Below the pieces are notes generated by a model, which did no database searches, had not been told where the DNA came from, and worked only from the letters and a program-made list of their open reading frames with translations. 64,000 nt of DNA from Picochlorum sp. SENEW3 (taxonomy: Eukaryota). Shown here piece by piece: positions 10,970 to 19,633 of the stretch. The position numbers were made by a program, and so were the translations under genes. The first letter of the stretch is position 1; every line of letters begins with the position of its first letter. The DNA lies in contig CP120457.1 of assembly GCA_034226945.1 (NCBI GenBank), forward strand, positions 62,001 through 126,000, in the 5' to 3' direction.

Positions 10970-11203
10970 GGCTATTTGTCAGCAAATTCCTACATGGATG
11001 GGTACATCTGCAGTTTCCAAGTCATGATTTAAACCCAATAAAAGAATTGGAAATGCCACATCACACATGCTTGTGTTGGATGCTTGTCTTGGCCCATGGG
11101 CCATGGGACAGCCTGGCATATAAATGTCAATTGAATTCCATTGCGTCTGAATCTGGCTTTTACAAGTATTTTTCACTATATATACGTATTTGAATACCTA
11201 AAT

Positions 11204-11746
11204 ATGTTCACTAGATTCACATCAGCCCTGACAAGAATACGCCAGACGGGCGTTCGTGCTCACCAGCAATTCGCCTCGATTCCTTCGAACAAGAGAGGCG
11301 TCTTTAGCCTTGGTCGGCAGCAGTATTCTTCAATGCGTATCATGGCATCTGAGGGGCAGATACAGAGCGAATTGATGGAGAGCATGCGGAATAAGATTCA
11401 GGTGGCTTTGGAAGCTGAGGACGTTCAGGTCACTGATATGCAGGGAGATGGGAGGCATGTGGAGATTATTGTTGTATCGAGTCAGTTTGAGGGGAAAAGT
11501 TCTGTCAATAGGCAGAGAATGGTGTACAAGGTACGCAGCGTATGGTGTGGCAAAGAATACTACCACGTTGCCCCATGTGGGAGGTCGTTCATGTTGGATG
11601 GGGGATGTCACACGGGGTTGTTCGAAAGGGATGTATACTGACATCATCTGTCTACCCTGTTGATGCAGGCTATCTGGGAGGAACTGCAAGACACTGTCCA
11701 TGCCGTGGATGCTATGGTGACAAAGACTCCTGAGGAGATGTCATGA
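11204..11746 (+). CDS. BolA-family protein (BOLA4-like, organelle-targeted)
   Basis: [32 protein letters not shown], intron 11531..11668, then [25 protein letters not shown]. Ser/Arg-rich transit-like N-terminus. Confidence 0.9.
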
Positions 11747-15553: not shown

Positions 15554-16823
15554 CTACTTTTTGGATGCCTGCTTAAGCGTCTCCAGCAATATGCTCAGCT
15601 TGTCAGGGGTGGGTTCGGAGGACTGTGCACCGTTTTGTGGCAGAACATCTTGCCTAGAATCACCACCGTGACTTGGGATGTGAGGAGTAAGACCCTGTGG
15701 CATGGCAGCCTGCTGAGGGGGCATGACTTGGGTTGGATTCATGGGAGAAAAGTTCTGCATCATTGCCAGTTGTGGATTTATCTGTGATCCCATCGCAAGA
15801 GGGTCTATTGGAGGACTTGTAATAGCACCCGGCATGTTCAGTTGCTGCATTTGTGGACCCATTGCACTGGTCTGCAATACAGGGACCTGTCTCTGTTGCA
15901 GCAGTCTGCTCATTGCATGCTGAAGTATCTCCGGCGGGAGGCTATGCCTACTAGGAGATTCTTGGGATTTTAGTCGAGAGCGATTGCGGGATAGTTCCTG
16001 CAGTGCCTGCTGCAACTCCATCAGGGCAACCAGTGACCTCACCTTGACCACAGCCGCGTCAGGTGTCTCGTGCAAACCATCCACCCGCATCGCTTCAAGC
16101 ACATTCTGTAGTGCACTATTGATCAGTTCATATGCAGTTTTCCGCGAGGGAACAGGTGTTCCTTGCTCATGGTTGCTCCTTGAAGGCACTTGATCCTGCT
16201 GGACGATCCTCCCTCCCTCAGCCTCACTCTTTCGTCTGCGACTGTTATGTCTTGCGAGCCTCTTTCTGCACGATCTCTTGTCACCATCAAACTCTGATAA
16301 CAATTGAAACCTCCCACACTGCTGACAGAATCGAATACTTTGCCCTTCAACAAGCAAAAAGTTGGCCTCCATATGGTAGGGACAGATCTTGTACCTCTTG
16401 TAGTACTCTTTCATGTTGTCGATGGGCCGAACGCACCCAGGCACTGCAAAATCAATGTAAAAGTATATGTATAGTGTATGAAGACGTCGATGCTTTCCAC
16501 AGTGCTTGAGAAACAGCACATGGCAGTACTATAGCCAATACAGCAGGGCATGAGGACACCACCTCACCCAAACACCCACCTTGACATGAATTTTTTCCTA
16601 CAGGCGAATCTTTGAAAAAACTTCGTCCCCTACCTCGCCTGTAGCGTGGACCAGGCGCCGTATTCTGACAGACATACGCGTCCAAAGCGTTGGAGAACCC
16701 TGGCACCTCCGGAAACGTTATATGCGTCGGTTGGTTACCATTCACCTCACGAATACCATTTGAATCACTGCTTTGTGTCCGACTATCGTCGCTTTCAGAG
16801 CTAGAGCTGCTGTCTGAGGACAT
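15554..16823 (-). CDS. SBP-box (SQUAMOSA promoter-binding) transcription factor
   Basis: Spliced CQ/VPGC...YYKRYKICPYH...RFCQQCGRFQLLSEFDGDKRSCRKRLARHNSRRRK SBP zinc finger; Gln/Pro-rich C-terminus. Intron roughly 16444..16579. Confidence 0.9.
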
Positions 16824-17576: not shown

Positions 17577-18416
17577 ATGTGTCAGAAAGGGAACAAAGAC
17601 GGGAATGCGTGCAGAGCAGCGGCAGCAGGGCGAAGACGGGAATGTCGCGGTGGGGACACCGCACCCAGGAGAGAAGGCTATCGGGAAACCGATGAGGAAT
17701 GTGTCGTTCGATCGACTGTGTCTTGGGATCAGAAGGCATTAGAGAAGAGACTTCAGGTGAGATTAGAGTCAAAAGATATCGAAAGCGGTGAAGATACGAT
17801 GGATGATGCGGATGAAGATACAATGCGGGATGAAGACATGTGTTGGATTTGTCACGATGGGCATTGTGTCACCATGCCGCTGGAGAGGACATGTCGGTGT
17901 CCATGGATGAAGGTTCATAGGCAGTGTTTGGCACGATGGCAGCTACAGCAAGCTGGTAAATCGGAGGAGAGGCGGTGTCGCTTTTGCAAGGACACATTGC
18001 CGGATTGGAGAGATGTGCATGCAGGGTTACCCAGAGCCCAGCCCATCATGACTGTTGTCCATGAAGGGGTGACCCATCAGGTCGTTGTTGAGCCTGGTGA
18101 GGAGGGCCAGAGGAAATTTCAGGATGATATCCGCCGAATTTTCGGTTTGGAAGGGCACGAAACAATTCAGCTGACGTTTGGGTGCCGGATTCCAGATAGC
18201 AGGCAAGAAGTGGTGCTTGAGGGATGGGAGTCATATGATGCGGCGGTGCACTGCGCCTCTTTATCAGCAGGTCAACGTCAAAAGAGGATCCACAGTGTAT
18301 CTCCAGAGAAACGAGTTGTGTCTAGGAGAATGTCAGGTGGGTCGGGTGTACTGAGGCGACTGTTTTCAAAGAATTTTCCCAGCAATGAGGAGAGCAGCAG
18401 GGCCATGACGCCATGA
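17577..18416 (+). CDS. RINGv (C4HC3, MARCH-type) zinc-finger protein without TM segments
   Basis: CWICHD...CRCPWMKVHRQCLARWQ...CRFCKDTLPDW. Confidence 0.8.
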   Translation: MCQKGNKDGNACRAAAAGRRRECRGGDTAPRREGYRETDEECVVRSTVSWDQKALEKRLQVRLESKDIESGEDTMDDADEDTMRDEDMCWICHDGHCVTMPLERTCRCPWMKVHRQCLARWQLQQAGKSEERRCRFCKDTLPDWRDVHAGLPRAQPIMTVVHEGVTHQVVVEPGEEGQRKFQDDIRRIFGLEGHETIQLTFGCRIPDSRQEVVLEGWESYDAAVHCASLSAGQRQKRIHSVSPEKRVVSRRMSGGSGVLRRLFSKNFPSNEESSRAMTP

Positions 18417-18610
18417 TCTGCAGGTCTTTTGATTTATGGCGTAGTGCCCTTACACTCGGTTGTATATAAATGTAATTGTGTATAGTTGTCATCATTGAAT
18501 TATTGGAAGAAGATTCAATCAATTGATCAATGCTGAATGGGTTAAAAAATGTAATACATCATGCATGTGACAAGCTATGTGACTGTATTGTTTGCTTTTG
18601 TTTCCCCGTA

Positions 18611-19219
18611 TCACACGTCAGGGATGTTCTCCTCTGCTTGTGTCCGAGGCCTTTTGAAGACCTTTGGTTTCTCCTCGCCATTGACTCCCACATGAAAAAC
18701 TTGGCGAGATTGATGGCTGCATTCACGTCTCGTTGCCAGAAAACACGCTCACATCCATTTTTCATACAACGGCGTACTTTCCAGCGCTTGTGAAGCCCCA
18801 CTGCTGGGGGGGCCCTCCAATTTGGCAGGGCAGGCACAGCAGTACTGGCTACTTCGGAACTCGCCAATCTTGATGAAACAGCACCTCTGCCGGAGCAGGT
18901 CCTTGAGGGCCCGAAAGCAGATCCTCTGTTTTCCGTGTTTCCCCGAGTTGATCGAGGCGTCCCCAAACACAACGACGGTCTTGCTCTGAGTCTCCCTGTC
19001 CTTTGTCCCCCAGCAGATCCGTTCAACCATGGAGTCCAACATTTGTTGCGTCCTTGTGTACACAGAGAACTTTTGTCTCCGGAAACAGTTCTGGCAATAA
19101 AATCCATACACTGTGTTCAGGTGGCTATTAGTCTTTTTGCAGAATGCCAGCACATCCCTTGCTATTCCCTCAAACCCACCAGATCTACAATAGGAAATCT
19201 GATGTGCTGACGTCAGCAC
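18611..19219 (-). pseudogene. Fanzor (eukaryotic TnpB-like) RNA-guided nuclease remnant, 5'-truncated, two frameshifts
   Basis: Frame 1: FRRQKFSVY..QQMLD...VVVFGDA...IKIGEFRSSQYCCAC (RuvC-II Glu plus CxxC). Shift at G7 run ~18806-18812 gives RWKVRRCMKNGC...WQRDVNAAINL (second Cys pair, RuvC-III Asp). Shift near 18683 gives NGEEKPKVFKRP...DV* ending 18611. No RuvC-I found upstream (in-frame stops). Confidence 0.8.
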
Positions 19220-19633
19220 CTATCTCGATATTAGAGGAGTTTCCTCGTCACAAGGCAATTACTATCAAACACTCATCTATGCTATATCCGAAATGTCGGC
19301 ACGCGACATGATGCACGGGCATGACAACGGCGACAATCGAGTAGGTTCGAAACCCCTTCTGCAGTCTTCGCAGGACGCTGCAAAGCATCGAATGTTGCGA
19401 GGGGAGGAGGAACACAGGGTTTATGGAGCAACTGGAGTTGGAGTTCATTACGACATTGGAGGGCTCAAGGATTTTGGGCCAGTGGACACGGAACGTGAGA
19501 GTCGCTGCTCTCTTGACCGGCAGTCAACATAGTGCCTATGTTCCACCCTTTTTTCTCTTTTCTCTATTTTTTAGATCTTGACATGTAATTATGAATGAAA
19601 AAAACCTGTAGTGTAGGCAAATAGAAAAATCAA

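Follow-up and report, generated by a model that had tools for sequence, protein, structure and literature searches.

Between two convergent host genes in the window (the whole stretch of 64 kb that was analysed) lies a gap of 1.2 kb, and a first-pass annotation made from the letters had reported in this gap a decayed remnant of a Fanzor/TnpB nuclease, spread over several minus-strand reading frames. This raised the question of what the sequence descends from, how much of the gene is left, and whether the remaining part could still do anything. Fanzor1 is an RNA-guided DNA cutter that is carried by mobile elements. The analyses described below indicate that the locus is, with high probability, a relic: a dead, 5′-truncated copy of a mobile element that carried Fanzor1, situated in the nuclear genome of Picochlorum.

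The window is gene-dense eukaryotic DNA of even GC content (0.44-0.49; 0.46-0.49 in the flanks of the relic). It also encodes SBP-box, calcium-dependent kinase, RING-variant and LysM genes, and it is a RING-variant gene and a LysM/deacetylase gene that enclose the relic. The LysM/deacetylase ORF showed 98% identity over 99% of its length to a protein of Picochlorum sp. BPE23, indicating that the host is a Picochlorum green alga. The minus-strand ORF at 15554-16528 encodes an SBP-box (SQUAMOSA promoter-binding) transcription factor (PF03110, E 1.4e-29); such factors are typical of the green lineage.

A family profile was built from 18 members, with the window left out, and was scored against the 1544 six-frame ORFs of at least 25 aa in the window. 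Two of these ORFs matched (E 1.4e-48 at profile positions 571-683, and E 1.3e-16 at positions 689-731), and none of the remaining ones was under E 2. When full-length relatives were compared with the window by tblastn, E values were 1e-35 to 4e-40 over the relatives' residues ~741-927; the alignments ran from 19207/19156 down to ~18614-18623, and those of close relatives started at 19156-19162. The minus strand from 18611 to 19168 aligned with the last ~190 of the ~950 residues of the family's proteins. For the first ~740-750 residues of the relatives, RuvC-I included, neither tblastn nor the profile found anything in the whole 64 kb, in agreement with the earlier statement that RuvC-I and the N-terminal lobes are missing. 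When 1.84 billion representatives were searched by HMMER with the main-frame piece of 156 residues, 63 proteins were matched at E ≤1e-3, 12 at 1e-10 and 3 at 1e-30. Proteins of 948, 963, 957 and 1003 residues were among these matches, and they were matched close to their C-termini. The three pieces of the relic were also searched singly. Against Pfam, the middle piece gave PF07282 (Cas12f1-like TNB) at E 0.11 and the others gave nothing relevant; against PDB sequences (phmmer), the first piece gave 0 matches and the second gave 3 at chance level. Single pieces were thus below significance, and the match became clear solely by way of the family. Self-BLAST of 18417-19633 against the window revealed no second copy, and neither did the profile search. 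The alignments indicate that the homology of the relic is real and far beyond chance. A weak tblastn match at 11200-11544 (E 0.043) was dropped, as it was absent from the profile search.

The same profile was used to identify the family. Among PDB chains it matched SpuFz1 (8gkh, E 3.5e-27), PpFz1 (9cf0, E 6.6e-25) and GtFz1 (9cer, E 1.7e-21), and the matched stretches extended into the N-terminal parts of these three proteins. A TnpB chain (8bf8) was matched at E 1.9e-3, and TnpB, LaTranC and Cas12f chains gave E 1e-3 to 6e-2. The link from the window to Fanzor1 goes through this family profile, and the fold evidence is the model of a relative, P0071, an uninterrupted metagenome protein of 413 aa that is 66% identical to the main-frame piece of the window. 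The AlphaFold model of P0071, made from a 35-row alignment, had pLDDT 82.6 and pTM 0.72. In a Foldseek search of the PDB with this model, ranks 1-7 were all Fanzor1 chains (SpuFz, PpFz and GtFz; E 4.9e-10 to 1.7e-6), with TM 0.52-0.53 at the best E of 4.9e-10; Fanzor2 appeared at rank 12 (E 8.1e-4) and TnpB at rank 21 (E 2.8e-3). The earlier reading of a decayed Fanzor/TnpB remnant was borne out by significant matches of both kinds, profile and structural, to SpuFz1, PpFz1 and GtFz1, and is narrowed by them to Fanzor1.

The motifs of the relic pointed in the same direction. According to the consulted parts of PMC10530073, the catalytic site of Fanzors is rearranged: an inert residue (Gly or Pro) occupies the canonical RuvC-II position, and an alternative Glu follows ~45 residues further on. 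This rearrangement was present in segment 1 of the relic: the canonical RuvC-II position, in VVVFGDA at 18956-18976, is a Gly, and the alternative catalytic Glu, in IGEFRSS, lies at 18860-18862, 34 residues after that Gly. A four-Cys zinc ribbon and the RuvC-III Asp in RDxNAAxN were also found, split over two frames. The first Cys pair (CxxC; 18839-18841 and 18830-18832) is in the main frame; the second pair (CxxxxC; 18766-18768 and 18751-18753) and RDVNAAINL, with its Asp at 18727-18729, are in the shifted frame. In the family alignment, columns G811, E845, C852, C855, C879, C884, R891 and D892 were invariant in all 18 members. The visible catalytic residues (alternative RuvC-II Glu and RuvC-III Asp) and the four Cys are intact, as the first-pass annotation had claimed. 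A TnpB identity was not indicated: the middle piece scored 13.2 bits with PF07282, whose cut-off is 26.3, and the canonical Glu site is occupied by Gly. PF07282 exceeded its own cut-off in 4 of the 13 relatives scanned. Judged by these sequence matches and by the modelled fold of P0071, the relic is a piece of a Fanzor1 gene.

Features of the relic and its surroundings (positions in the window)
Feature	Position	Strand	Basis or remark
RING-variant (RINGv) gene	ends 18416	+	neighbour of relic
Whole relic: last ~186 codons of a Fanzor1 gene and ~58 nt of 3′ flank	18552..19168	-	tblastn, contigs
C-terminal tail, main frame, ..VNGEEKPKVFKRP...PDV, stop at 18611-18613	18611..18685	-	tblastn with P0071
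Second frameshift: one base missing relative to other copies, return to main frame	18685..18686		contigs
Out-of-frame segment (frame of 19116)	18686..18805	-	profile search, E 1.3e-16
First frameshift: one surplus base, compared with intact relatives, in the G7 run (coding strand: C7)	18806..18812		comparison with P0071 and P0054
In-frame segment 1 (frame of 19219)	18813..19168	-	profile search, E 1.4e-48
Spacer of 465 nt between LysM/deacetylase stop and the break of the relic	19169-19633		outside Fanzor homology
LysM/deacetylase gene, 746-residue ORF	ends 19634	-	neighbour of relic

On the minus strand, 18749-19219 translates as ...FRRQKF...VVVFGDA...IGEFRSSQYCCAC, the frame of 18559-19116 as ...WKVRRCMKNGCERVFWQRDVNAAINL..., and 18611-18748 as ...NGEEKPKVFKRP...PDV, followed by a stop. 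All peptides and motifs that had been quoted from the letters were therefore present on that strand. They had been assigned to three frames; the displacement was correct, but the number of frames is two, because 18748 directly continues 18749 and only ~18686-18805 is shifted. The start at 19219 had to be moved, since homology begins at ~19168 (the tblastn alignments of close relatives and the divergence of contigs at 19168 both bear on this). The 3′ limit of ~18552 is our reading of the loose ends of contigs; contigs of other copies align to 18573. The C-terminal tail alone was not significant against the family profile (E 7). It is colinear with the ends of P0071 and of a second relative, P0074, with a common ...PDV stop, and P0071 aligned to its last residue.

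Several features of a complete Fanzor1 gene were absent from the window copy. The RuvC-I Asp (D671, in a DPG motif) was found in 18 of 18 relatives; it lies upstream of the break and is consequently missing here, as are the N-terminal REC/WED parts. The reading frame is interrupted by two single-base indels and by a main-frame TGA at 18749-18751. The 120 nt between the indels (~18686-18805) are out of frame, and they contain the second Cys pair and RDVNAAINL. With no REC/WED, no RuvC-I Asp and two indels, the relic cannot make a nuclease. What remains is the final fifth of the gene, which comprises the back portion of the split RuvC domain (alternative RuvC-II Glu, zinc ribbon and RuvC-III) and the C-terminal tail, together with a little of the 3′ flank. 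The 185-codon open frame at 18559-19116 on the minus strand, with an ATG at 19107, is mostly the wrong frame of the relic. A metagenome ORF, P0054, which is near-identical to this frame, was called 'hypothetical protein'. Neither the 18559-19116 ORF nor ORFs of the P0054 type are genes; they are artefacts to which the relic gives rise in annotation.

To compare the locus with other copies, we used contigs (Logan) of four public sequencing runs. Such contigs are evidence of presence and hold no read-level counts, and their depths were not used as copy numbers. All four runs contained, besides contigs identical to the window, contigs 85-95% alike over ~18573-19168, indicating that the sequence is a small repeat family. 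The genome had been described as otherwise repeat-free; further copies of the relic in the same run data contradict this description. At 19168 the contigs of all four runs diverged from the window. When the consensus of their loose ends beyond 19168 was reverse-complemented and translated by hand, it gave those residues of P0001, a metagenome fragment, that directly precede the part matching the window. One continuing contig, from the likely source run, was 1097 nt long and extended 950 nt past the break. Other copies thus run on past 19168, and the window copy is 5′-truncated at ~19168. X5 and X9 also contained a form with an internal deletion of 294 nt (18759 to 19054). No empty site, in the form of a contig joining across the relic, was seen in the contigs of the four runs. 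X5 had no cover at 19218-19472.

The window copy differed from a ~95% copy by 21 substitutions, which were distributed over codon positions as 5/8/8; 9 were synonymous and 12 non-synonymous. There was no strong excess at third positions, and the synonymous share was slightly above that of pure drift, a pattern that is not plainly neutral. Part of this divergence may predate inactivation and stem from live master copies. The window copy would have arisen from a longer element that was inserted incompletely or lost part of its length afterwards, in a manner comparable to the 5′-truncated Fanzor1 copies of Chlamydomonas, and would now be drifting neutrally.

A dead copy is one way to account for the two indels; the other is that one or both of them are errors of sequencing or assembly. 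The locus would then be clean and open, and would still be a truncated, non-nuclease C-terminal fragment. The first shift lies in a homopolymer of seven bases, and the second indel offsets the first. In X1, the likely source run, unitigs end on either side of the G7 run, and the sole contig that bridges G7 among those listed is 93 nt long and carries six extra G; the clean contigs listed for X1 end at 18790 and resume at 18841, with none across G7. The length of the homopolymer at 18806-18812 may be unstable or difficult to sequence. Against errors, a contig of X5, which comes from a different study, covered 18300-18723 with one other letter and no gap and repeated the missing base at 18685. 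The variant contigs of X5, X9 and X14 had one base fewer at 18805 and a T inserted behind 18685, and were in frame at both sites. The one-base deletion at 18805 was found in 0 of a depth of 87 in X1, and was absent from ~20 of 90.7 in X5. Moreover, in P0002, a metagenome relative with 76-79% identity, translation crosses the shifted stretch as in the window and ends at the same stop. P0054 had 84% overall identity to the shifted-frame ORF and was near-identical outside a stretch of 19 residues; it was without the shift in the G run, had another shift ~60 nt upstream, and had the same state as the window at 18685. Lesions thus differ between copies, which fits decaying pseudogenes. We consider the error explanation unlikely. 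From the contigs and the related sequences, both indels are probably real; the exact length of the G run is less secure.

The other alternatives concern the function and origin of the fragment. The host might use the relic, either as part of a long 3′ UTR of the LysM/deacetylase gene or to produce a small RNA out of what was once the guide-RNA region. Green algae use TGTAA as their poly(A) signal. The relic is located downstream of the LysM gene on the same strand, no TGTAA occurs on the minus strand from the LysM stop to 18454, and a related fragment is contained in an ORF of the Picochlorum oklahomense transcriptome. However, RNA structure at 18500-18700 gave no signal (z = +0.45; 130 of 200 shuffles folded at least as well), a search of Rfam returned no match at E up to 1, and the indels and truncation vary among copies. 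Host use is likewise unlikely. Another possibility is that the fragment arrived with the insertion of a giant virus and not with a cellular transposon; the first-pass annotation had offered a viral insertion as one source. According to the available sections of PMC3627910, Fanzors also occur in large dsDNA viruses of algae, and viruses have been put forward as their vehicles. In the same sections, IS607-type elements of giant viruses are tied to Fanzor2, whereas our matches were to Fanzor1. Scans of IMG/VR viral contigs, with the window piece and with an alignment of four proteins, found no relatives, and the relic is flanked by ordinary algal genes of even GC content. A viral arrival is thus quite improbable, and that part of the annotation was not upheld. 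Lastly, Fanzor-like motifs could have come together by chance, since single pieces are under the thresholds of Pfam and PDB sequence searches. The two E values obtained with the window-free profile (1.4e-48 and 1.3e-16), together with the colinearity with P0071 through the shared stop, rule out such a resemblance for practical purposes; its probability is negligible. The dead, truncated copy of a Fanzor1 element is the reading that we retain, and most likely the relic does nothing.

The carrier element was searched for around the relic. No terminal or inverted repeats and no target-site duplication were found, merely short chance-like matches. No transposase is adjacent, as had been noted from the letters; the neighbours are the RINGv and LysM/deacetylase genes. 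The 5′ end of the element is lost from the window copy, and the ends of the carrier are therefore not definable here. The suggestion that intact sister copies with an omegaRNA may exist elsewhere held in one respect: more complete copies were present in contigs of the runs, as a 617-aa model in Picochlorum renovo and as metagenomic proteins of 947-1003 aa. No sign of an omegaRNA was seen in the structure and Rfam results given above.

Relatives were examined for their hosts and for their position in a tree. P0071 clustered at 90% identity with two gene models of Picochlorum renovo, NNA_004002.t1 (P0075, 250 aa) and NNA_004002.t2 (P0074, 617 aa). P0074 is uninterrupted, and in this 617-codon model all three catalytic residues are present. 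In a poly(A) transcriptome of Picochlorum oklahomense, an ORF of 167-182 residues contained ~45 residues of the region at 67-70% identity, followed by unrelated sequence. This ORF is the basis for our conclusion that such relics can be transcribed. The tree was computed from the shared ~118 columns of 26 rows, with a length filter of 40 residues by which 0 rows were lost. It grouped the window with the Picochlorum oklahomense fragment, the Picochlorum renovo models and the metagenome fragments P0001 and P0002 (support 92/92), and this group was sister to intact metagenome proteins of 948-1003 residues (99/96). The intact relatives (947-1003 aa) are metagenomic and formed clusters, one with 5 and one with 9 near-identical proteins, encoded on different contigs. 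The presence of near-identical intact variants on different contigs suggests recent activity. A scan of metagenome contigs with a 10-row alignment gave 63 pattern matches, of which 0 were confirmed; since the JGI-sourced relatives contain the motif that was searched, the collection evidently lacks their contigs.

The family of the relic shares its order of motifs with SpuFz1, PpFz1 and GtFz1: Gly at the old RuvC-II position, alternative Glu, CxxC...CxxxxC, RDxNAAxN and a ..RP..F-like tail. In contrast to these proteins, the window copy consists of the last ~190 residues only and bears two indels. The P0071 model had 13-17% sequence identity to their chains in Foldseek, and the intact relatives exceed in length those parts of the solved Fanzor1 chains that were matched. 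TnpB (ISDra2, 8bf8/8h1j) and Fanzor2 (mimivirus, 9b0l) belong to the same superfamily and have the zinc ribbon and RuvC-III, but their matches were much weaker. P0074, P0075 and P0071 belong to the same subfamily and clade and have the same C-terminal end and stop as the relic. Unlike the relic, they are uninterrupted and extend past the RuvC-I DPG motif; yet they have about two thirds of the length of the ~950-aa relatives. The CRe-1/2/3 elements of Chlamydomonas reinhardtii (CrFNuc, Fanzor1c), likened to the relic here by description, are also green-algal Fanzor1 elements, with carriers of Helitron2 type. Like them, the relic is 5′-truncated with its 3′ end kept, and the internally deleted form (294 nt) occurs in other contigs. 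In the portion of PMC3627910 consulted, the Fanzor1 families of C. reinhardtii are described as 'frequently 5′-truncated', with 3′ ends intact, and green-algal Fanzor1 elements were described in 2013 from Chlamydomonas, Volvox and Chlorella vulgaris. Klebsormidium and Chlamydomonas Fanzor1 have been studied biochemically, as stated in the available text of PMC10530073.

The relic is genuine yet unremarkable; elements of this type are familiar, and the family has been known from green algae since 2013. In itself the relic is of little importance, since the dead end of such a gene most likely has no activity. Its presence documents the arrival of Fanzor1 elements in Picochlorum, and it points to a Picochlorum-specific subfamily whose longer copies are possibly worth study as compact-genome algal RNA-guided nucleases. 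In the literature, as far as it was accessible, no report tying Fanzor to Picochlorum was found; the supplementary tables of the 2023 Fanzor surveys may list such loci. More tentatively, Picochlorum might possess a Fanzor1 subfamily of its own, not described to date, of which live members may persist somewhere in the genus or in its relatives. The 617-codon Picochlorum renovo model with all three catalytic residues and the near-identical variants of 947-1003 aa are the grounds for this suggestion, which we regard as possible but on balance doubtful. If the subfamily is alive, the relic would be the trace of a functional RNA-guided nuclease system in algae that grow fast, tolerate high salt and have compact genomes, and sister copies would show the guide RNA and the carrier transposon.

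The spacer between the LysM/deacetylase stop and the break was also inspected. It gave no tblastn or profile match to Fanzor relatives and is not repeated elsewhere in the window, and the minus-strand ORF at 19248-19523 within it matched no Pfam family. In the plus-strand ORF at 19203-19532, 18 residues at 19449-19502 (GVHYDIGGLKDFGPVD) weakly matched NHase_beta_N (PF21006, the N-terminal motif of the nitrile hydratase beta subunit; E 0.017, 15.6 bits, cut-off 21.5). No more NHase-like sequence was found downstream of this stretch, and the match is probably due to chance. In so compact a genome, the 465 nt of the spacer are a considerable length for intergenic or UTR sequence.
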